Part shown: positions 6,493 to 18,319 of the stretch, one piece after another
Layout of the letters: each line of letters opens with the position of its first letter
Numbering within the stretch: the first letter of the stretch is position 1
DNA from: Trichodelitschia bisporula
Lineage: Eukaryota
DNA: 64,000 bases
Direction: 5' to 3'
NCBI GenBank assembly: GCA_010356995.1
Contig: ML996692.1
Coordinates: forward strand, 507,933-571,932
Translations under genes and position numbers: made by a program
Notes under the pieces: model-generated
Told to the model about the DNA's origin: nothing
Databases searched by the model: none
What the model saw: the letters and a program-made list of their open reading frames with translations, nothing else

Positions 6493-8431
6493 ATGGATCA
6501 TCGCGTCCTGCCATCCAACGACCCCTCTCTGCCCGACCACCTCACTCTCCCCACCTCTGGCGTTCCGCAGCGCGTACTTCAGGAACGCAGTGGCAACCGG
6601 CAGGATGAGCTCGCACACAGCGAGCACCACATCAGAGAGATGAAGCAGTCTTCACACTCGTCCGAGAATGAGATCACATCCCATACCCGCCGGTCCACCA
6701 ACCCATTCTCGTTGCGTCATCGCAGCGAGGCTGACATTCTCGAAGAGACAAACCGCCTCTACAATGCTTGCATGGAAGTGCCAGAGTTCCGCGAGTATCG
6801 CCAGGGTCAGCAGTGCCGCCAGCGGGGGAGCAAGCAGCAAATATGGCCGGATAGGGTCGAGCTGGCGTTTATGCGAGGTATGCTCTTTCACCCAGCGTAG
6901 CAGAGGTCGGAGCCTGACGACAGCCAACAGCAATTGTCATCTATCCGCCCATCGGGAAGGGCAAGGTCCTCCTCCCTTTCGATGACAAGGGCCTAGGCCG
7001 CAACGAGCTCATCGCGGACGCCATCAAGAAATATTGCGGCGTAGATCGAAACCGCAAGCAAATCTCCAGCCATCTGCAAGTGTTGAAGACTAAGTTCAAA
7101 GACAACCAATACGGTTCGTTCTCCACTCGTCCTACGTCCCTCTCCTAACAGCCTCAGTGCTCTCCCGCCTCGGCAACCCCAATGAACGCTACTTCCGCAA
7201 AACCAAGCACCGCGCCTCAGGCGGGCGCTCCCGGCGCCCCATTCCTTCTTCCCCTCCCATCACCCCATCAGCGCCCCTCTACACCCCCTCCGACTTCCAA
7301 ATGTTCATCACCGACGCTTCGCACCCCGCAGACGCCCAGATAATCCACTACTTCACCTCCTTCCGCCCCTCCCCCCGCCAACCCGACCTCCACCTCCCCT
7401 CAAGCGCCCACCTCCCTTCCCTCCTCCCGCACCTCAGCCCCAACCTCACCACCCCCCCACCCCCCACCGCCCAAGTACTCTTCGCCCACGCCTCCCTCTC
7501 CCTCCCCCCCTTCCCCCTCCCTAAAGGCTCCACCTCCCTAGGCATCCAATTCGAGCTCGCACCCCACCCCTCCCTCTCCTCCTACACCGATTTCCGCGCC
7601 ACAGCCCGCTTCTCCCAAAACGGCCACCCGGAGCAGGATATCATGGCCCGCGTCGACCGCAACCCCAAACAACCCTCCCGCCTCGTCAACATCCACTTCG
7701 GGTCCGACTTCTGGGCTCGCCGCTTCATGGCCCGGGCAATGGGTCTCGCGGGCCGCCTTGCGTGCCGCGCCGATGGCGCCGCTCAGGCGCTGCACGAGGC
7801 TGTGGCTGCGCTTGGGGCGGTGCAGTGCCTCGAGGGCTTGCGCGACGGGGTGTGGGAGACGCTGTTGCTTGTGTACTGGCGCTTCGAGCTTGCGGAACCG
7901 GGGCGGAAGGGCGAGGCGAGCTGGCGGGGCGTGGTGTTCCGGGACAGCGGGGCGGCGGGTGCGGGGGCTGAGGGGGATAAACTGGAGCTCGATGAGTTGC
8001 CGGAGGGGTTTGAGTGTGAGCCTGGGGCGCAGTTTGCGGAGCTTAATTTTGATCCTGGGTTGGATGTTGTGGGCTTGGGGTTGCCGGGTGGGGAGGGGTT
8101 GTACGGGGTTGATATCCAGGGCGGGGATATGCAGTTGTATGATATGGAGCAGACGGGGTTGGAGGGTGGGGTGGAGTTGGATGGGTTTCCGGCGGGGGCG
8201 GAGGGGGGGGCTGAGGGGTATGATGGGCCATGGCAGGGGGGGTATGCGGCGCCGTATTTTGATACGGGACCTGTGGCAATGGAGCCGACGGGCGATGTAG
8301 GATTTGGGGAAGGGGGGAGTCAGCATCATCATGCTTTTGGCGGGGACGATCAGGGTTGTCATACCGGCGGGGAGATGCCGCAGGAGTTTATGGGGCAAAC
8401 TCTGCCGGGACTTGAGATGTCACAGGCATAG
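6493..8431 (+). CDS. TEA/ATTS-domain transcription factor (AbaA/Tec1 family), 3 exons
   Basis: TEA domain across intron 1: IWPDRVELAFMR|AIVIYPPIGKGK...GRNELIADAIKKYCGVDRNRKQISSHLQVLK. Introns 6878-6930 and 7114-7157. Acidic/Gly-rich C-terminus. TATAAA at 6322-6327. An upstream in-frame ATG at 6445 is also possible. Confidence 0.88.
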
Positions 8432-8662
8432 GCGCTAGAGATACCTCTTTTGTATTGTTTCTGGGAGGATTGTAGGACTAGGGATTGGAGCTACATTAAT
8501 ACAGTAATCGAGAGACTCGAAATCTTGTTCGCTTTGATGCAGAGGCCCGTCCTTATTCCAACGCTTCGTTCCGTAGCCATCCAATCATCTCTGTTTTACT
8601 CAAACCAGATGATATGGGAAAGCAGCTCGACCGTCATCGAGAAAGCCACCCTATGCGTGAAC

Positions 8663-10071
8663 TTAAATGAGAGGAGGCATGCCTTCACGCGCCATCCGCT
8701 CTTCGAGATCCTTCATGTACTTTTCGAGAAAGTCAAGGCACAACTTCGCACACGCTTCTTTGGCGGCCTTCTGGCCGTAGACATGACGGACAAGACCAAC
8801 CGGTCGGTCACCGTTGATCCAGTCGGTTTGCAGAAAGTAAGCACCACCGGAGTAGATGTGCCCATTCTCGGCAGTCATCTTAAACACCGGAGGGGGGATG
8901 CCACACTTCTGGCAGAAAGCTTCGTACACTCAGTTACACAATGTAAAGGCTGGGGGAGGGTTCTTGACTTACCTCTAAGCCTCTCCACACTAGTCCCGCT
9001 ATGAGGTACGACTCGAGAGATATAGACATTGTCATTGACAGGTGGTTTTGACTTTTTCGAGACATAATCGTCTCCCACATGACCTTGTTCCTTCAGCCAC
9101 ATCAGAGCCAGACGCGCTGCGTTCTGTCGAGCCTCCTTCTTCGTCTTGAACGGCTCCGTTTTGTCCCCAAATAAATCAGGAAAGTTACTGGCCCGGACTT
9201 CGGATGAGAATCTAGGACCGACGTTGTAATCCTGCCACACGGGGAGCGGGGCTCTGCTGGCCTGGCAGTACTCTAAACCTCTGTTAACTTCTGGGCATTT
9301 GGGGTATATCCCTCGTGTACATATGTACTTACCGACCAGTTTGCCCATCCAGTTCATGGTATCGGTGTTCTCAGACGAGCATGGTGATCCAGGATCATCT
9401 ACGATGCCTAGAGCTTCGAGTCCAATCTTCGCAACCGCCTCCTTGGCTTCCTTCTTGTTCTTCGCCAGTCCACCTGTGACTTCCCTCTCTCCTAACGTCA
9501 AGGAAGCTGTGAATCCGTCTCCTTGCGCTTCGAACTTGAAGTCTAGCGGCATTCCCTTCCTCTGTGCGATATGGTGCAATCTGACAACCGCCGACTCGTG
9601 TGCGATTTTCTTGAAGTAATCATTGGTCTCGGCCGGTGGCAAGCTCTTGAAGTATTCGACACCCTGCGTCGCAACTGCGCGCTTCGCATCCTTCTTGCCG
9701 CGGAACGGGCCAGGAGCGTTGAAGACCGTCCCCTCACCCAGCGTCAAGGACGCGCCGTAGACAACGCCCCCCAAAGCCGCATAGTCCACAGACCGCGTAG
9801 TTGTGTACTCAAAAACCGGGCGGATTCCACGACGATTCGTTATAGTAGTCAGCTCCGATACTGGATCCGCTGCACCTGGGGAGGCAGAGTCGCCGATCGG
9901 GATGGGCTCCGGGCCCTTGGGTTTATGAACCTCGTTGACGCTGACAGGAATGTCAGCTGACACATTGATAGATTTAGAAATGCGCTCGGCTTCCTTCTCC
10001 ACGAAGGTCTCGTACGCGTATTTCAAGCCTGGAATGCGGTGCTTAGCGGACGCATCGGTGGGGGTTGACAT
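8663..10071 (-). CDS. Protein with four tandem double-stranded RNA-binding motifs and no evident catalytic domain, 3 exons
   Basis: Four dsRBD-like units: DPVSELTT...KKDAKRAVA; SAVVRLHHIAQ...KKEAKEAVAKIGLEAL; NWMGKLVEYCQ...KKEARQNAARLAL; SVERLRAFCQK...QKAAKEACAKLCL. Introns 9273-9332 and 8920-8972. Confidence 0.85.
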
Positions 10072-11442
10072 GATGGTAGAGGAAGCGTTAAGAGTCAGTG
10101 GAGGCTGCTCTGCGCTTGAAGTGTCTGGGAACCGTCTGAGTTGGGCGTAAGAAGATACTGCAGAGGGTGGTGAAGTGGTTGCGGCAGAGTGGGGGTTGTG
10201 GGAGTGGGTGTGGTTTTCTAGGTGGGGTAGCTCGGAGCTGTGCGAGGACCACGAAGCTGGGCCCTCGAGTGGCTTCTTGGCTTTGGTGCGAAACGGCCGG
10301 CTAAAATGTACCCTCCTTCATGATGGGATGGAAGGTGTAGCAGTGCGTGGTGCAGAGTTGTTGTTGGAAGGGGGGGCGCGGAGGGGGGAAGGAGCGTAAC
10401 CTTAGTGGGGTTGACCGGAGATGGTTTTATGGGAATATATCTTGTTGGCCAGCCTCGCTCCGCCCCATAGCTGTTCCCCCGCATACCTATGCCTGCAGGC
10501 GCTAAGGCTAGAAGTATCTACAACATCAACTGTTCCAAGCATTCATATTTTGAGCATGTCTAGATGTATCGTGAGTTGATACGCTCACTGACTCATTCAG
10601 CAAGAAGTTCAATTCATCACTGTCAATCTGCGCAACCAAGCATGGACGGATCGGCTATGAATTGACCTCTAGGTCCAACGTCGACTCTGTCTCTCCTGAT
10701 GGCAAACAAACTCCTGACGGCCAAAAAGTAGATCAACCCGTCTTTCACCGCCATGACTTATTTCGGACGCGTGAGGGCTGTTTGCTGACAGTTACACCTG
10801 ATATCCTTTCCAACTCCGCGAAAATGAGGATTTAAACGTTACCAGTCACGACAGAACTTTCACCGTTGGGTTAACGGGCTGAGTTGGGAATTAGTATTAT
10901 TATTATCATCTAGACTACAGTATCTATGAAGCCACGCGCTGTGAAAGAATAAATGGTACAAGCCGCTTCCTGGTTATAGACTTACGGGTCCAGCTACATG
11001 TAAAACTTACAATATCTGGTATATTGTCAAACTGTTAAAACTGGGTTCCAGGCATGAATCGCGTGCTGTGGTTCATGGAGAGCCGTGCTCATAGGGGGGG
11101 GGGGGGGGGTGGCGTGGCCGGAGCCCCAGCGCTGGAATCCTAGACTTCTTGCGTCTGTTGACATTTGTGCAAAGTGGAAATGGTGCGCTGAGCCGCGGAT
11201 TGTGGATTTGAGTGCTCGCGGGGCCGGCTGAAGAGGGCAGAGTTGATCAAGCTTCCTGCGATGGCCGGCCGTAGTCAACTATCACCAATGCCGGATGAGT
11301 ATGCTAGCAGGGTAGTGGGGGGTTGTACGAATCCGAGGTTGAGACTGTTCATGTTATCGGGGGTTGTGTGAGTCGAAAGCGACAGTGTTCATGTCACGAG
11401 TAGCGGGGAAGGTGGGTTGTAAGAATGCGAAGGCAACGCTGC

Positions 11443-11748
11443 TCATGCTAGCAACGCTGCTCCTACCATACTAGGAACGTTCTTCATCGGCCTTGCGGCG
11501 CTCCTCTGTTGATTGGATTTCAGCTGATGCTGGTCGGTAAAAGCAGGGACCACTGTTGAGCCATCCGGAGTAGCTGTCGTAGACTCGTCATGCGTATCAG
11601 GCGGTATACCATTAGCTGGGGCGCTGGCCTTTCGCCAGGACTCCCTCAAGATTTTACGGATTTTACCCACGTGTGAGCCCTCAGACCGCCCCGGGGCACC
11701 AGAAGACGTAGCGGTCGGAGGCTGGGAGATTCCGAGAGGAAGTAGGGG
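11443..11748 (-). CDS. Candidate alternative terminal exon of the NAM8-like gene
   Basis: CCTAAC branch point, then CAACAG acceptor at 11749. The phase-0 frame PLLPLGISQPP...AALLA* (101 aa) is compatible with the phase-0 donor at 12744. Confidence 0.5.
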   Translation of the reverse strand, partial: PLLPLGISQPPTATSSGAPGRSEGSHVGKIRKILRESWRKASAPANGIPPDTHDESTTATPDGSTVVPAFTDQHQLKSNQQRSAARPMKNVPSMVGAALLA

Positions 11749-12696
11749 CTGTTGCACCTCGGCGTTAGGATTAAGCCAACTCATTCGAAAAGGTGCCTAG
11801 ATGGATTATGCTCCGCCAGTGTTTCTCTGGGAACTGCGCAACATTGTCAGCATAAGATGGAGGATGCTGAAGAGGGAGCGACGCAGAATACAAACGCTGC
11901 ATGGGATCTTGCGGCCATCGTATTTCGTGCGTAACGGTAGCCTGGATACCTAGTCTTTAGTAGCAAAGAAAGCGTTCACACGACATCCTGCAGAAAGTAT
12001 ACTTAGTCCAGCAGCCAAATTGGCCACCGTACATGCTTCAGCGCGCGTAAATCAATCCACACGACATACGGCAACGCAGTCAGGGAACATGGAATTTCAG
12101 AGGCAAACATACAAGACTGAGCAGCATCGGCTGGTGCAAAAATGCGGGATTAGTGAGCAAAACGCATTTGCATGAGGACATGGAAGACGCAACCCCGCAG
12201 TAAAAAGATATGCCAAACAGTACCCAGGCTTGACTCCGGCTTGACTCCGGCGAAACTGCAGCTAGCTAACCCCACGGCCCACACAAACCTAACGGACTAC
12301 GCCCGAGCTCCGTGCATCCGCGGTAAAAGAAGCTAGTTACAACAAACAAAAGGATCCTCCGTCGCTCAAACAAGTAGCGCTCGTGACCAGATTCGAAGTG
12401 GCCTGTGGAGCCGACTGTTGTACAAAAGCCGAATTTTTTCTAAGCCGCCGTAATTGCAATTGATAAACCCTTGATGGCAGAGGAAAAAGAAAGCAGTGAT
12501 TGACTGGTCAAGAATGGAATTGTGGGATGGGAAGGGGTAGACAGATGGGCTGTAACTTTTGCCGAAAGTCAAAGCAAGGAAAACTCCAGATAAATGTCCT
12601 GTCATAAACGCGTGCATCATTCATGAGACATACTCGCATTCCGTTAATGCTCAACGAACGAATGACCGCACAATGGATGAAGCAGTTTAGGAACGC

Positions 12697-14103
12697 TTAC
12701 TGCGCGGCGTTAGAGTAGCAGGCGGGGGATAGTGGAGAACTAACCTTCAGGGGAGCGTAGTTGCTGTACGCCGCGGGACCGGGCATAGCCATGTTGGGGT
12801 AAACCGGGGGGGGAGGGGCGGGCCGGTAGGGAGTGCCGGCAGGCCCAGAGTTGTTCTGGCTGCGGCCCCAGCTAAGGCGAACACGCGAGTTGCCGATCGG
12901 GTAGCCTTGCATCTGGTTGATGGCCATCTCAGCAGCATGGCGCTGGACGAACTGAACGAAGCCGCAACCCTTGCCAGGGGGAATCTTGACATAGGTGATC
13001 TCGCCGAATCCTTGGAAGAACGACCGCAGCTCGTCCTCCGTGACATAGCCAGAGAGACCGCCAACGAAGACGGTGGTATTGTTGGGATCCGTGAACTGGT
13101 TCATCGGCTGAGGGCTGCCGAAGAAGCCCATGGGCGGCGGACCCATGCTGTACATGCCCATGCCTTGAGGACCAGGCATCCCCATGGGAGCAGGGCCAGC
13201 AGCAGCATTGTTCTTGTTCTTTGGGGTTGCCATAGAGATGCGCATCGGCCTGTTGCCACAGTAGACACCCTGCATCTCATTCAAGGCACGCTGCTGCTCG
13301 CTCTCATCGGTAAAGCGAACGAAGCCGTATCCACGAGACATGCCCGAGAGCGGGTCAGACATGATCTTGGCCGACTTGCATGACGGATACTTGGCCTGGA
13401 ACAGCTGGTGGAGCACATGCTCCGTGACCTCAGGCCCAAGGTCACCGACAAAGATTGAAAACTCAGGGCCACGGTCATCACGGCTTATTCAATTAGCCGT
13501 CGCCTTTTTTTTTGGCGCAAAACTCACCTCCGGTCAGCAAGACCACCTCCCGACGCCCAGTTGAGCTTGAACGGCCGGTTCGAGTTAGGGATGGGAGATC
13601 CGTTGTAGGAGAGTGCCTTGGCGGCGGCAGCCGGAGAAGTGAAATCGACGAAGCAGTACCCGGCATTTGAGCTGCGCTTGGTTAGTCTTGCAAGGCGATG
13701 ATATGCGACCAAACTCACCCAGTGAACTTGTCGCGGATCATCTTGACGTTGACCTGCTCGCCAAAAGTGTACCACAGGTTGCGGATGAAGTTCTCATCGA
13801 TCCAAGGCTCCAGCTCGCCCATCCTAAGATTGGTCAGACGGGCAACTCGCGCATGCATCAGTCGACTTACCAGAGCGTCGTCTTCTCCCCCGACGCATTC
13901 TGGCCATCAGGGGACGGTCCACCGGGGACCTGCATGTTCTGCGGCGGATACTGGGGCACGCCCGGATCCATCATCTGGCCCATTTGGCCCATTTGGCCCA
14001 TCTGGCCCATCTGGCCCTGGGGGTTTTGGCCTTGCGCATTGCCCTCGTCCGGCATCGGCTGGCTCCCGTAGTAACCACCCTCATTGCCAGGATTGAAACT
14101 CAT
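12697..14103 (-). CDS. NAM8: NAM8/NGR1/Csx1 (TIA-1-related) triple-RRM mRNA-binding protein, 5 coding exons
   Basis: KTTLW|MGELEPW, NAGYCFVDF, FKLNWASGGG, SRGYGFVRF, DPNNTTVFVGGL, KGCGFVQF and RVRLSWGRSQ. The last intron (12700-12744; GTTAGT...CTAAC...CAG) is followed directly by TAA. Confidence 0.92.
13972..14016 (-). repeat. Coding 9-bp tandem repeat, (Gly-Gln-Met)x5
   Basis: Five copies of GGCCARATG in the low-complexity N-terminus of the NAM8-like protein. Confidence 0.9.
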
Positions 14104-14439
14104 TGTGATGACTTAAGCTGATAACGTTGGAATGGGGTTGACGGAATAGTTGTCAGATGAGATGGCTCAAGCCTGACGTCTGATGAAGAGATGAGCTGAC
14201 GATGCACCAAGACAGTCGCGCGCAAAGACGTACGGGAGTTGAAAAGAGGTATGAAGTTGGAAATCGCGGGTTCAGTGTCGCGCCGCGCACAGTGGTTGTA
14301 GAAGGCAAAGTGGGGCTCGAAAGGCGCTCGGAAACGGCAGCCGTAAACACCCGTTTAATGGCTCCTTTGCGCCAAATGTTGTAAAGAATGACGGCCGTGA
14401 GCTGTGAGAGAAACTGTCGTCGTAACGCAGCAGCAGAAC

Positions 14440-14858
14440 CTGCGGGCACCAGTCAGAAGGGCTGCGGTGAAAAGGTGCGAATGGACGGCGATATGCAAGG
14501 CGAGATAGCGATGAAAACACAACGCAACAACAACTCAATGATCGCGACGGCGAAGCATGCAGGAAGAATGAACCATTTGGGAAGAGGATGTGGGTGGGGA
14601 GGAGGGCACAACAACCGAGAGTCAGGCCGAAGAGAACGCGACTCATGACAAGATGAGAAGCAGTCGCGAACCACGCGCGCCGATGCAGCGGGATGCGCAT
14701 CAACGGCAGCGTTGCGCGATATCGGGAGACGAGACCGTGAAGCAGCATGCTTGCGACAGCAATGGAAGAAACATTGGGAAGACATTGAGGCGATGGGGAA
14801 ATAGTGAGGAGTGCCGGCGCATCTGAAGGATGGAGGGACGGCAGGGCTGGGGACTTAC
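14440..14858 (-). other. Probable 419-nt 5'-UTR intron of the NAM8-like gene
   Basis: Perfect GTAAGT donor at 14858, TCTGAC branch point and CGCAG acceptor at 14440, within a long pyrimidine-rich leader. Confidence 0.55.
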
Positions 14859-17800
14859 GGGATCGTCGGAAAGAGGCGCGACGGGTGTCGTGCGTCCTGT
14901 GTGGTGGGGTGGGGTGGGAGTAAAGAAGTTTTAAAGGTTGATCCTCAAGAAGAGTAAGAGACTAAGAAGAAGCCCGTCAAGACGAAAGAAGTTGAGTTTC
15001 GGAGAAGAGTGAGTGGGTTGGGGGGGGAGGGGGGGGAGAGGTGGTTGAACAACCTTGACGAGATGGAGGGTTTTGGTTGATGGAGGGTTTTTATGGCTGA
15101 AGGCAGGATCGGGCGTTAGTTAAAAGCGGCGAGTGGGGTGGGGGGGAGGAAAGTTCTCTCTCTGTGTGTGCGAGTTGTGTGGAAGAGAGATGGAAGGCGA
15201 GTTTAGAGGAGGGCGAGTACCGGGTAGGTAGGTGGGTTATGACTTTTGCCTTTCCCCTCATCCACCTAGGCGCGGCTTCAACACAAGCGAGTGAGGCGGC
15301 TTACTTAATCTAAGAGCAGCGGCTCAAGAGCGGGATGGATAACCGTGTTCTGGTGCAGGAAGAAACTGTGCCAGAAGACACTGTGCGGAAGGAGCTGAGG
15401 ATACCAAATAGAGATTATTGAGGAAAGCGGATGCTCTTTTTCTGGCGGGGCCTTCAATGGCTTCTTATATGCTCATGCAGTAGTGTAGAAAGAGAAAGTG
15501 AAGGTCCTGTCACCACGAACTATGGGATAGACCGACGCCGGAGACCGAAGTGTGCACGCGGGGTACCGTAGAGTATTTCGCAATGGTCGCGTACGCAGTA
15601 TACGCATACCACAGTACCCTTTATATCGGTCCCATCAGCGCAAGTGCAGGCAGTACGTAGTCGCACTCCGGTATGGTACTAGAACTACAGCCTACCGAAA
15701 GTCAAAGAGTTAAAGAGATATGGTAGAGCGATAAGCAGCAAATCAATGGTTCTCGACCGTACCACTTCCTATCGTACTATGATGGTCGAGGGCCAAAGGG
15801 AAGAGCACGCAGGTCGGGAAAAAGAAAATGAGGATTCGCGTCTGACCAATGTGCGAGGGTTGCCATGCATTCCCTACCACACCGTGTATGCAAGCAATAT
15901 GTCAAAACTCAGGCACGGGCAGATCTGGTGTCCCATCGGCCATCTCACCCGCCAGAAAGGACCCTGCTTTTTCTCAACTACTCCGAACAACTTTCTTCCT
16001 GTGATGCGACCTACCATCATCGCCACTGCCTTGCTTGCTTGAGCTATACGTATATCGTCCCTGATAGTTTCAGTTTGTTTGGGAGCCGGTGAACACCTCT
16101 TCCGCTCTCACATTCTTCACCACTGCATCCGTAAACATCGCTGCAAACCCTCCATTTAAACCGCCAACGCCGATGTGAAATCGCAGCAGACATGGGAGTG
16201 GTGGTATGGTATTTGGCTTCCTACTGCTGGCTTAAGCAAAAAACTAACTTGGGGCCCAGCTATGTTGTCGTCCCAGTTTCATAGGAGGCATCGCCTTTCA
16301 GTCTCGTCGCGTCCAAAGTTCACAGTCTAGGTGTTGAGGCTCTGGTGGCTCCTTCCCCCTCCATTTTCTCCGTGATGGCGTCATATCAGCGGGGTGTGCG
16401 TGGAATGCATATCTGCAGGACTGGTCGCCCTGTCACCTGCTTATTTTTAGGCTCCAATTGCCTGCTTTTTCCCGCTGCGGGCTTCTTCCTGCACGGAACG
16501 TCGAACCGTGGCTTCGAAACGCCTACCTAAACCGACAATCGTCTCCCAAGCTCCTTTCACCTTTCCTACGCGGTACTCAATGTCTATTGACCTCACAATT
16601 GTTCATCCCTTCCATCTCACCATCGATGGTGCGTAGATACCTGCCTCATTGACGCCTTCCGTGCGTCCTCCAGCGCATCGCCAGTGCCACAGAAACGCGT
16701 GAAAACCCTTTCAGCCCCGGTAGAACGCACCTTTCGTCCGAAGCTACGACGCTCAAGTACCAATCAATCAGCATCTTTCGCAACCCGTATCCAGTCAGAA
16801 CGGACTAGAAATAGAGGTGGGCGCACCGGCGGTGCGGTGCTTGCAGCCGGTAAGCTTCGACAATTTAGTGATGGGTACTCCTCGCACGACGTCGTGATCA
16901 AGCCCGATAGGGATCGATCAAAGCCCCACCGATCGCGTTCATATGATGGAAGTGCACTGCTAATCGGCGCACCCAGCTCTACTGTGCAATCAGATCTGTG
17001 ACGCCGGTGCCATTACCGCGGTGCATGCCCTACCACCAATGGCTAGCCAATGCCGCTGCACTCGCACCTTCCCACGATCGAAATCTCAATTTCAGATCTT
17101 ACGTGTCGTCTCTCGGATATCAAATCGCATATCGGCCAGCACCAACTACGCGCTACCCATCCTAGCGACTCCACTTTCGTCTCAACCTTTGTGGCCAATA
17201 GTGTCACACCCAGCCCTATCTTCAGCCTTGTTTGCGGAGACTGTTGGTGGCATCACTCAAGGGCTAGGCGACAAGTGGCTACCCGCGAAATAATCCCGTA
17301 GGCATTGACATCAGGACTTGAGTATATCGTTTGTGGCCTATGGCTCTAATACGTCTTCATAATACTGCTACTTACAGCTGGCGAGCGTCAAGTCCGGTGC
17401 TCTGATGTGGTTCCGCTGGCTCTCAGCTGCGTGAGCTAAAACGGACTCTCAGGAGTCAACTGATTAGCGCAGCGTGTACCCATTTTCGGCCTGTGAGCCG
17501 ACTTCCGGCGACAATTGGTAAAGCGTGACGGCGCCTTCGATCTTGATGGTAAGGTGGTTAAGATTGTTACAGTGGTTTAAGGTAGTTCTCACCGTCAAAT
17601 GGAATGCAGTATCGAGCGTACGTCAGTTGGCCGCACGGCTCGGACCACTGTCGTAGACTAATATGCCCCAGAAGATATCGGCGTCATCATTGCTCTCTGG
17701 TCCTTCGCAACTGTGGCTAAAGGTAAATCATGAGAGATTCTTCTACCCTGGCTGCATACGACTGAGCACAACCATTTCCAGCAAACCGTTGTATTCGCCA

Positions 17801-18319
17801 ACAGCTCATAGCGGCCCCCAGAACCTCGAATAGTCCCCCGAAGGATACGCGCGACCGTGTGATTCGCTTTGGTCTATGACGTGGGTCTATCAGACCTGTG
17901 GAATGCTGGTTGTCCGACCGGTATGGGCTCCGGCGAACACCACGGGACGCGGTGTCTCTCATTGCCGTGCGGTGGCAACGGACCATCATCTCACCGAGAG
18001 CACCGCTGCTGTCATGCTTGAATTGGTCGTGGAAGGTACGGCGGCCGAATAACAACGGCAGCGGGAGGACAGGATGCCGTTATGGTTGGAAAGGTATGGT
18101 GCGGACCATCTAACTTTAGGTTATCTCTGTCGCAAGTGAGAGCTGCTGCTAATCGGATACCCTCACGTCAGCAATCGTTGTTGCAGATTGGCTAGAATGG
18201 GATCTGATGGAGTATCTGTAAGCACTCAGCACGTTCAACGAAGCAGCGAGGAATTTTCAGTGATGTCAATATTTTGGTTATACGCATAGCGCCTCGCGCC
18301 ATGGTCGGCAGCTGCAAAG

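Follow-up and report, generated by a model that had tools for sequence, protein, structure and literature searches.

Introduction

How many C-termini can a gene specify when the stop codon that ends it also spells the start of an intron? This question is raised by the 3' end of a minus-strand gene of the filamentous ascomycete Trichodelitschia bisporula (assembly GCA_010356995.1, contig ML996692.1), which lies within the 64,000-nt stretch analysed here (positions 507,933 to 571,932 of the contig, hereafter the window). The gene has four coding exons (1221 nt, 407 codons, C-terminus ...APLK) that encode three RNA recognition motifs (RRMs) and, judged by sequence, it is the only Nam8/RrmA/Csx1 orthologue of its genome. 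The original prediction held that one donor at the end of its last coding exon is spliced either to a nearby acceptor followed at once by a stop codon or to a distant one that opens a 101-codon alternative terminal exon. We find that the sequence features it named are real and that the join it proposed is wrong for the conserved system. The reading that we favour, and to which we give about half of our confidence, is that the Nam8/RrmA gene has inherited a stop/donor switch and that the second exon of this switch has since decayed in this fungus.

The nested intron and the rebuilt donor

Coding exon 4 (13483..12745; all features are on the minus strand unless stated otherwise) contains RRM2, RRM3 and a Pro-rich end and closes with the codon AAG, the final G of which (12745) doubles as the first base, G1, of a split external donor. 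A 45-nt internal intron follows (12744..12700, GTTAGT...TCTAAC...CAG), which places the phase-0 donor AAG|GTTAGT at first intron base 12744, the TCTAAC and the CAG that ends at 12700 in front of a TAA, all as originally described. This TAA belongs to the pentamer TAAGC (12699..12695), which supplies the stop codon of the short form and, together with G12745, rebuilds a donor, GTAAGC. Such an arrangement, in which an internal intron separates G1 from U2RWGY of an external donor, defines the [D1,2] stwintrons in passages of PMC9024468, and in the window it reads G12745 | GTTAGT...CAG | TAAGC. The same layout recurs in nine tail-bearing orthologous loci.

Transcript information came from assembled contigs of two runs (X1 and X2) of one sample, which are not on record as RNA and were placed on 10300-15400; since they skip seven GT-AG introns, we treated them as spliced RNA. 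Contigs of this kind drop minor forms and can merge molecules, so that an unlisted joint is not evidence of absence; besides, X2 has no cover below 12119 and X1 ends at 11111 beside a C16 run, and neither was used to argue for absence or for a 3' end. The predicted proximal splice is present in the contigs of both runs (joint 12699/12745), i.e. the internal intron is excised and the donor rebuilt, and the stop form is therefore real. A 3261-nt X1 contig carries this joint and then runs unspliced from 12699 to 11111 with no gap or difference, whereas no joints into 11748 or 11833 are listed in the X1 and X2 contigs, which stem from one sample and lose minor forms. The counterpart of the external intron (12699..11749) is hence retained in this contig as the first part of a long 3' untranslated region (UTR). 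An alternative terminal exon or 3'-UTR switch, as had been suggested, fits poorly with a stop-form contig that already traverses the distal open reading frame (ORF) down to 11111, bearing in mind that this contig may merge molecules.

The 3' UTR contains further well-formed splice signals (12633, 12130-12113, 11987-11950 and 11834), none of which is spliced in the contigs. They comprise a GTATGT at 12633, a signal likewise found soon after the stop in L043 and L039, a possible 18-nt micro-exon (12130..12113) framed by ACTAAT...CAG and GTATGT, and a possible 38-nt micro-exon at 11987-11950.

Orthologous loci and the conserved tail

The orthologue survey covered 80 metagenome loci plus the window, in which 4114 open segments 3' of RRM3 were scanned with a hidden Markov model (HMM) built from 25 tails. 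Among the 120 near-length homologues listed, some 56 have the corresponding Lys/Gln as their last residue and some 59 continue with Val, the reading of the intron's GT (hand count). The 120 longer homologues include a second form, in which Asn stands instead of Lys and a conserved tail of ~70 residues follows; this tail also occurs in proteins from Lipomyces, Saitoella and Pneumocystis. The tail HMM matched 36 of the 80 loci at E<1e-6, and a DNA model found these 36 again and added L037, where the tail is cut by the contig end. Fifteen of the 80 loci have the tail contiguous with RRM3, 22 have it as a separate distal exon 0.26-1.0 kb downstream, and the remaining 43 gave no tail match, many of these being short or spliced contigs and several having 5 kb of flank. 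Tail loss, as judged from these loci, is common in the family.

What decides the route into the distal exon is its phase. AG|T C is invariant at the acceptor of all 10 distal exons that were aligned and, as one base completes the codon, entry is in phase 2, in conflict with the phase-0 join to 11749 of the original prediction. The sole phase-2 donor begins at the G of the Lys codon, and all 22 distal-exon loci keep a donor there. In 13 of them it reads AA|GTAGTT, letters that also spell Lys-stop; in the other nine a short intron interrupts it, AA|G-(short intron)-TAAGC or TAAGG, as in the [D1,2] stwintrons defined above. For the simple-donor type, the second splice is shown by a genome/protein pair: P0138 is identical to the L023 exon in 241 of 242 residues, the sole difference being Asn for Lys at the joint, beyond which it continues as the translation of the L023 distal exon. 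At nested-donor loci, the second splice is deduced from the phase. This deduction is backed by further Asn-entry sequences with relatives of the Lys-Val genome type (P0172 versus P0162, 94% identical; P0046; and the transcript contig L051); for the long-form proteins, an origin from transcripts is presumed because their ORF runs uninterrupted on a short contig. Thus, the notion of two C-termini survives at the level of the gene family, with 22 of 80 loci carrying a conserved distal coding exon, while the mechanism first proposed for it is not the conserved one.

The distance from G12745 to 11749 is 997 nt, compared to external introns of 922-988 nt in L043, L039, L046 and L049. A non-coding motif, GGCGGCTTAGA (12451..12441), lies within a shared block at ~12456-12408, and blastn with this region returned L043, L039 and L037 at E 0.002-0.007. 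Its degenerate form GGCGRCYTAGA is present in seven of 89 loci (the window's own, L001, as well as L037, L039, L043, L046, L049 and an unrelated one), a related block exists in L025, and the loci closest by this motif all retain the tail exon. These shared non-coding blocks are candidate splicing-control or protein-binding sites. No inverted repeat common to the window and four orthologous introns was seen, and we claim no conserved pairing. Looking at the blocks themselves, that at 12456-12408 (GGCGGCTTAGA...TGTACAACAG) and another at ~12345-12315 (GTTGTA.CTAGCTT) are common to orthologous external introns or 3' UTRs, and neither matched an Rfam family.

The survey also recorded several departures from this layout. 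Asn-entry tails unrelated to the ancestral tail were found in P0046, P0157, P0172, P0174, P0175, P0177 and locus L051; the proteins include Alternaria/Curvularia-like ones, L051 is a transcript, and in other lineages the second splice appears to have survived while the content of the exon was exchanged. Elsewhere the switch has been lost in independent ways, through a Lys codon AAA that leaves no G for the rebuilt donor (L070, L074), an intron-less Gln-stop end (L071-L079, L081, L083, L085) or a GC-AG internal intron followed by TAAAC (L088). Of note, the tail exons of L037, L039 and L043 extend ~40 codons beyond the usual end, the L043 tail having 112 residues, close to the 109 codons that the distal frame of the window counts from 11772.

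The distal open frame

The distal frame of the window (11796..11443) measures 117 codons from stop to stop, 109 counted from 11772 and 101 from 11748 (11748-11446), with an ATG at 11784 and the stop codon TGA at 11445-11443; CCTAAC at 11769 and the CAG that ends at 11749, followed by 101 open codons, stand where the original prediction had placed them. The acceptor concerned (11769..11749) reads CCTAAC...CAG|C CCC TAC and fits the orthologous exon-start signature AG|Y CCN YAY, a point in favour of 11749 that had not been raised before. By itself, being exactly in phase with the donor is a one-in-three event, and 11749 is one of four branch-point/AG pairs below 12700 in our scan (12131, 11834, 11749, 11574). 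Candidate acceptors lie 912 (11834), 975 (11771) and 997 nt (11749) from the donor. The signature AGYCCNYAY itself matched 13 times in 128 kb (both strands) against 13.7 expected by chance, and the chance of its falling within the expected zone of ~170 nt is ~2%, for a pattern chosen after the loci had been inspected. Entered in phase 2, the acceptor opens a different frame (11748..11646, stop 11648-11646), in which Asn-Pro-Tyr... and 34 residues in all would replace the last Lys; hhalign found no similarity of this frame to the conserved tail beyond the first three residues. A candidate alternative branch point and acceptor (11851..11834, GCTGAC...CAG|T) would give a 10-residue phase-2 tail ending at TAA 11808-11806.

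Does the 101-codon frame descend from the tail exon? Its Pro-Pro-x-Ala...Ala-Pro-Gly stretch is in register with the conserved tail in both DNA and protein alignments. Within 10900-12700, the best of four DNA-model matches (11779-11667, E 0.061) falls on this frame and puts the ancestral AG|T on AA|T at 11772-11770, which would be a dead acceptor. When 122 homologue tails were used as queries, the two best sense-strand matches likewise lay on the distal frame (P0146, E 0.001; P0152, E 0.002), these values being against a 2.3-kb target each and uncorrected for the 122 queries. By contrast, the C-terminal signature of the tail, a helix ending in R-L/M-E/D-A..R-G...S-V/I-F/Y, is absent from all three frames examined. 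A short motif like the tail's end occurs in the third frame near 11590, where alignments of the segment disagree. As a peptide, the distal frame has no relative in tblastn against the 80 loci (best E 1.7), so that the homology search once proposed for it came back empty, and among 1.84 billion proteins it returned one repetitive 3875-residue match and no convincing relative. Neither the distal ORF nor a conserved tail produced a usable match in the ESM Atlas, where a blank is uninformative. A-ending codons do not discriminate either (19 of 101 in the distal frame, 8 in the first 40 of the L043 tail and 2 in the first 40 of exon 4; hand count).

Nor does the frame call for a special explanation by its size: of 70 stop-to-stop frames listed for 8000-18000, 24 have at least 100 codons (hand count), one of them (133 codons, sense) sits wholly in a spliced-out 5'-UTR intron of the same gene, and the distal ORF itself lies inside the unspliced 3' UTR of the stop-form contig. 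Taken together, the distal ORF is probably an eroded descendant of the tail exon, likely so by its position and unproven by its sequence. As separate observations, a perfect 12-nt direct repeat at 11433-11462 spans the stop codon of the ORF, and a Pfam match of the ORF to SseB (E 0.007, under the cut-off) was treated as chance.

Weighing the explanations

The inherited switch would operate in two steps. In the first, which is seen here, removal of the 45-nt intron joins AAG to TAAGC, so that the protein would end at Lys407, and simultaneously builds the putative 5' splice site G|UAAGC, a [D1,2] stwintron donor. In the second, which is shown in a simple-donor relative and deduced for nested donors, the spliceosome would commit to this site and remove an external intron of 0.26-1 kb, whereupon AA|Y would become Asn, the stop would be lost and the conserved tail of ~70 residues gained. 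Failing such commitment, the external intron would be kept and form a long 3' UTR. The stop codon being part of the rebuilt donor itself, the second step would be optional and would decide the C-terminus. The tail may tune the seating of RRM3 in the U1 small nuclear ribonucleoprotein (snRNP) against free mRNA-stability work and Nam8, which aids U1 on weak donors, may itself bias the second step. For this fungus, the most likely state of that step is vestigial or unproductive, with the short form as the mRNA seen and the distal ORF as what erosion would have left of the tail exon, its signature and phase-2 entry lost. We favour this vestigial state on account of the step-one joint, the orthologous tail exon, the shared distance, motif and signature, and the missing tail signature.

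Several observations weigh against this interpretation. At the DNA level, the model match ranks 13th of 42 across the whole window (E 2.2), the tail HMM found nothing at E<=10 in 12870-5000, and direct comparisons of the distal frame with the tail are non-significant (hhalign E 0.27; blastp E 0.23 and 0.42). A frame still open over 109 codons at the homologous place, about the length of the L043 tail, is unlike long neutral decay; from a back-of-envelope stop rate, its survival would have a chance of roughly 2%. The 22 distal-exon loci amount to about a dozen distinct sequences and are not independent cases, and the nested-donor loci yielded no exact match between a genome and a transcript. 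Among 19 tail-less loci with at least 1.2 kb downstream, 10 keep a donor-like TAAG and ~9 have lost it (hand count), so these letters alone prove nothing and may partly reflect stop context. On the transcript side, the RNA consists of contigs of one sample from which minor forms have dropped out. As to function, the ascomycete tail could not be aligned to that of S. cerevisiae Nam8, the alignment ending after RRM3, and in complementation of yeast Nam8 residues 455-523 were dispensable and 401-454 essential (passages of PMC3082912).

The two-step route might instead be active here, leading from G|UAAGC to 11748 (34-residue Asn-Pro-Tyr tail) or 11833 (10-residue tail); it would swap the C-terminus or cut the 3' UTR by ~1 kb, whatever the peptide. 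We hold this to be unlikely, if not to be dismissed lightly: the GTAAGC donor is intact, the intronic motifs are conserved, 11749 fits the orthologous signature at the orthologous distance (the ~2% chance above, for a post hoc pattern) and in other lineages Asn entry leads to tails that bear no relation to the ancestral one (L051, P0046, P0172, P0174, P0175, P0177), yet the phase-2 frame resembles the tail in its first three residues and no further, and the stop-form contig is unbroken across the region. The one-step join from 12744 to 11749 that was originally proposed, with the G exonic, phase 0 and a 508-residue protein, could be the way in which this lineage regained the ancestral frame once an indel had arisen or the acceptor had been lost. 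It is the only canonical route to the frame in weak, non-significant register with the ancestral tail, the frame that is open over 109 codons and is hit by P0146 and P0152 (uncorrected, as said), and single-step removal with an exonic G has been described for [D1,2] stwintrons (passages of PMC9024468). What makes this join distinctly unlikely is that the 10 aligned orthologues leave phase 0 unused, that it must bypass strong signals, a branch point and an acceptor, which lie 45 nt away and are used in RNA, and that the resulting peptide lacks both the tail signature and any relative (tblastn E 1.7; the one repetitive 3875-residue match).

Just as improbable, to our minds, is the complete loss of the tail exon, in which case the ORF and its branch point and AG would have arisen by chance within a 3' UTR of 1.6 kb, and the 45-nt intron would be an ordinary last intron. 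Every unbiased homology test being non-significant, long non-coding frames being common here and the far UTR having acquired foreign sequence (Utp22 pieces, see below) all agree with such a loss, but position, signature, length and register converge on the same 330 nt, and the loci closest by the shared intronic motif have all kept the tail exon. The boldest version is a long shot: a Pezizomycotina-wide system of stop-codon donor, nested intron and Nam8-controlled choice between a U1-tuned tail and an mRNA-stability form, rewired in this fungus such that one-step skipping of the stwintron reaches a diverged ancestral frame. The inherited switch with a decayed second exon thus remains our preferred account.

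Gene structure and neighbourhood

Upstream of exon 4, coding exon 1 (14103..13871, ATG at 14103) encodes a Q/G/M/P-rich leader, exon 2 (13823..13719) the start of RRM1 and exon 3 (13671..13528) the remainder of it, as read from the translation and the RNA-type contigs. Pfam finds two RRMs in exon 4, RRM1 was read off the translation, and four homologues show three RRM stretches; the tandem RRM1-RRM2 and the conserved linker before RRM3 that mark an orthologue are both present. Exon 4 is 78-86% identical to the best 120 of 2165 homologues; wherever one of these 120 carries a species name, the species is a filamentous ascomycete. No matches came from a search with the low-complexity N-terminal exon. 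The close homologues P0116, P0111 and P0117 bear RrmA/Csx1 family names, and among the 120 some are called Csx1 or 'regulation of arginine catabolism'. The next match within the same genome is only 30% identical, in line with a single copy. In a PDB search with a profile of 36 long-form relatives, yeast Nam8 was the sole match at E<=1e-30 (5e-100), and the top Foldseek match was a chain of the yeast E complex (6n7p_F, 51% identity), a result uninformative on the tail. Association with the U1 snRNP or control of mRNA stability may be expected for the product on the strength of its family.

The 5' UTR contains three introns, of 208 nt (15304..15097, GTAAGC...CTTCAG; joint 15096/15305 in X1 only), 419 nt (14858..14440; joint in X1 and X2) and 54 nt (14233..14180; joint 14179/14234), the second of which holds the 133-codon non-coding sense frame mentioned above (ORF 14453-14854). 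That the first was seen in one run, at lower depth, suggests alternative starts. Rfam returned no credible family in 10300-15600 (a single match, E 0.62).

Antisense in the far 3' UTR, on the plus strand, lie two rearranged and decayed pieces of this genome's own Nrap/Utp22 coding sequence (11044..11223), which are 75-76% identical to G000:C10 (L089 2394-2651) and swapped in order; the X1 contig covers the region down to 11111. Weak, non-significant Utp22 similarity may extend to ~11490. An origin of the distal ORF as the antisense of this relic was considered and rejected: the significant match ends at 11223, and nothing further was found for 11260-11900. The downstream neighbour (8875-10317, minus strand) encodes dsrm double-stranded-RNA-binding motifs (Pfam, two stretches, E 7e-14).

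Relation to known systems and significance

Alternative terminal exons and regulated intron retention are known from genes for RNA-binding proteins. Like these, the present system would have one gene with two C-termini under plausible feedback control; unlike them, it involves no separate terminal exon and no poly(A) choice, as the 3' UTR of the short form already encompasses the distal exon. Closer parallels are the [D1,2] stwintrons (passages of PMC9024468), in which an internal U2 intron splits the external donor and its removal builds that donor. The difference is that the intermediate would here be a complete mRNA whose rebuilt donor spells a stop, and that Tuber-like loci have the same switch without any internal intron. 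Involvement of a stwintron in alternative splicing has been reported for Pezizomycotina (PMC6616335). We found no description of the present switch in a search of the full-text literature, which did not extend to supplementary stwintron lists and subscription papers; the available passages of PMC5639578 mention neither RrmA nor Nam8 nor a stop codon.

With S. cerevisiae Nam8, the gene product shares its three RRMs. Within the U1 snRNP of yeast, the C-terminal tail of Nam8 and a helix of Prp39 lie over the beta-sheet face of the Nam8 RRM3, and U1 is aided by Nam8 in engaging weak splice sites (passages of PMC5648754); given both, a feedback switch between tail-on and tail-off forms is plausible. 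An AlphaFold model of the long form P0124 placed a helix at 435-456 (predicted local distance difference test ~55-67, predicted template modelling score 0.28), with no packing on RRM3 seen. A. nidulans RrmA and S. pombe Csx1, which belong to the same family according to the names of close homologues, control transcript stability under nitrogen and oxidative stress (passages of PMC4282371), and the available text of that paper contains neither 'intron' nor 'splic' and describes no tail isoform. Many fungi have been noted to encode a Nam8 of ~400 residues without the C-terminal domain (passages of PMC3082912). In some species at least, these forms appear to be one isoform of a gene whose tail resides in a hidden exon, which would in part explain that remark.

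In terms of annotation, most Nam8/RrmA proteins of filamentous ascomycetes are given as tail-less with ~400 residues or run into the last intron. The comparison shows that in many of these genes the ancestral tail sits in a separate downstream exon, concealed by a donor that doubles as the stop codon. For this genome the gain is smaller, its lineage having apparently been caught losing or rewiring the second step, the second half of the mechanism, which here appears eroded. At the family level, the mechanism appears to be a new form of stwintron-based alternative splicing, in which the stwintron would gain a regulatory job because its intermediate is a finished mRNA. It could also allow a direct test of why one and the same protein is described now as part of U1, now as a factor in mRNA stability.

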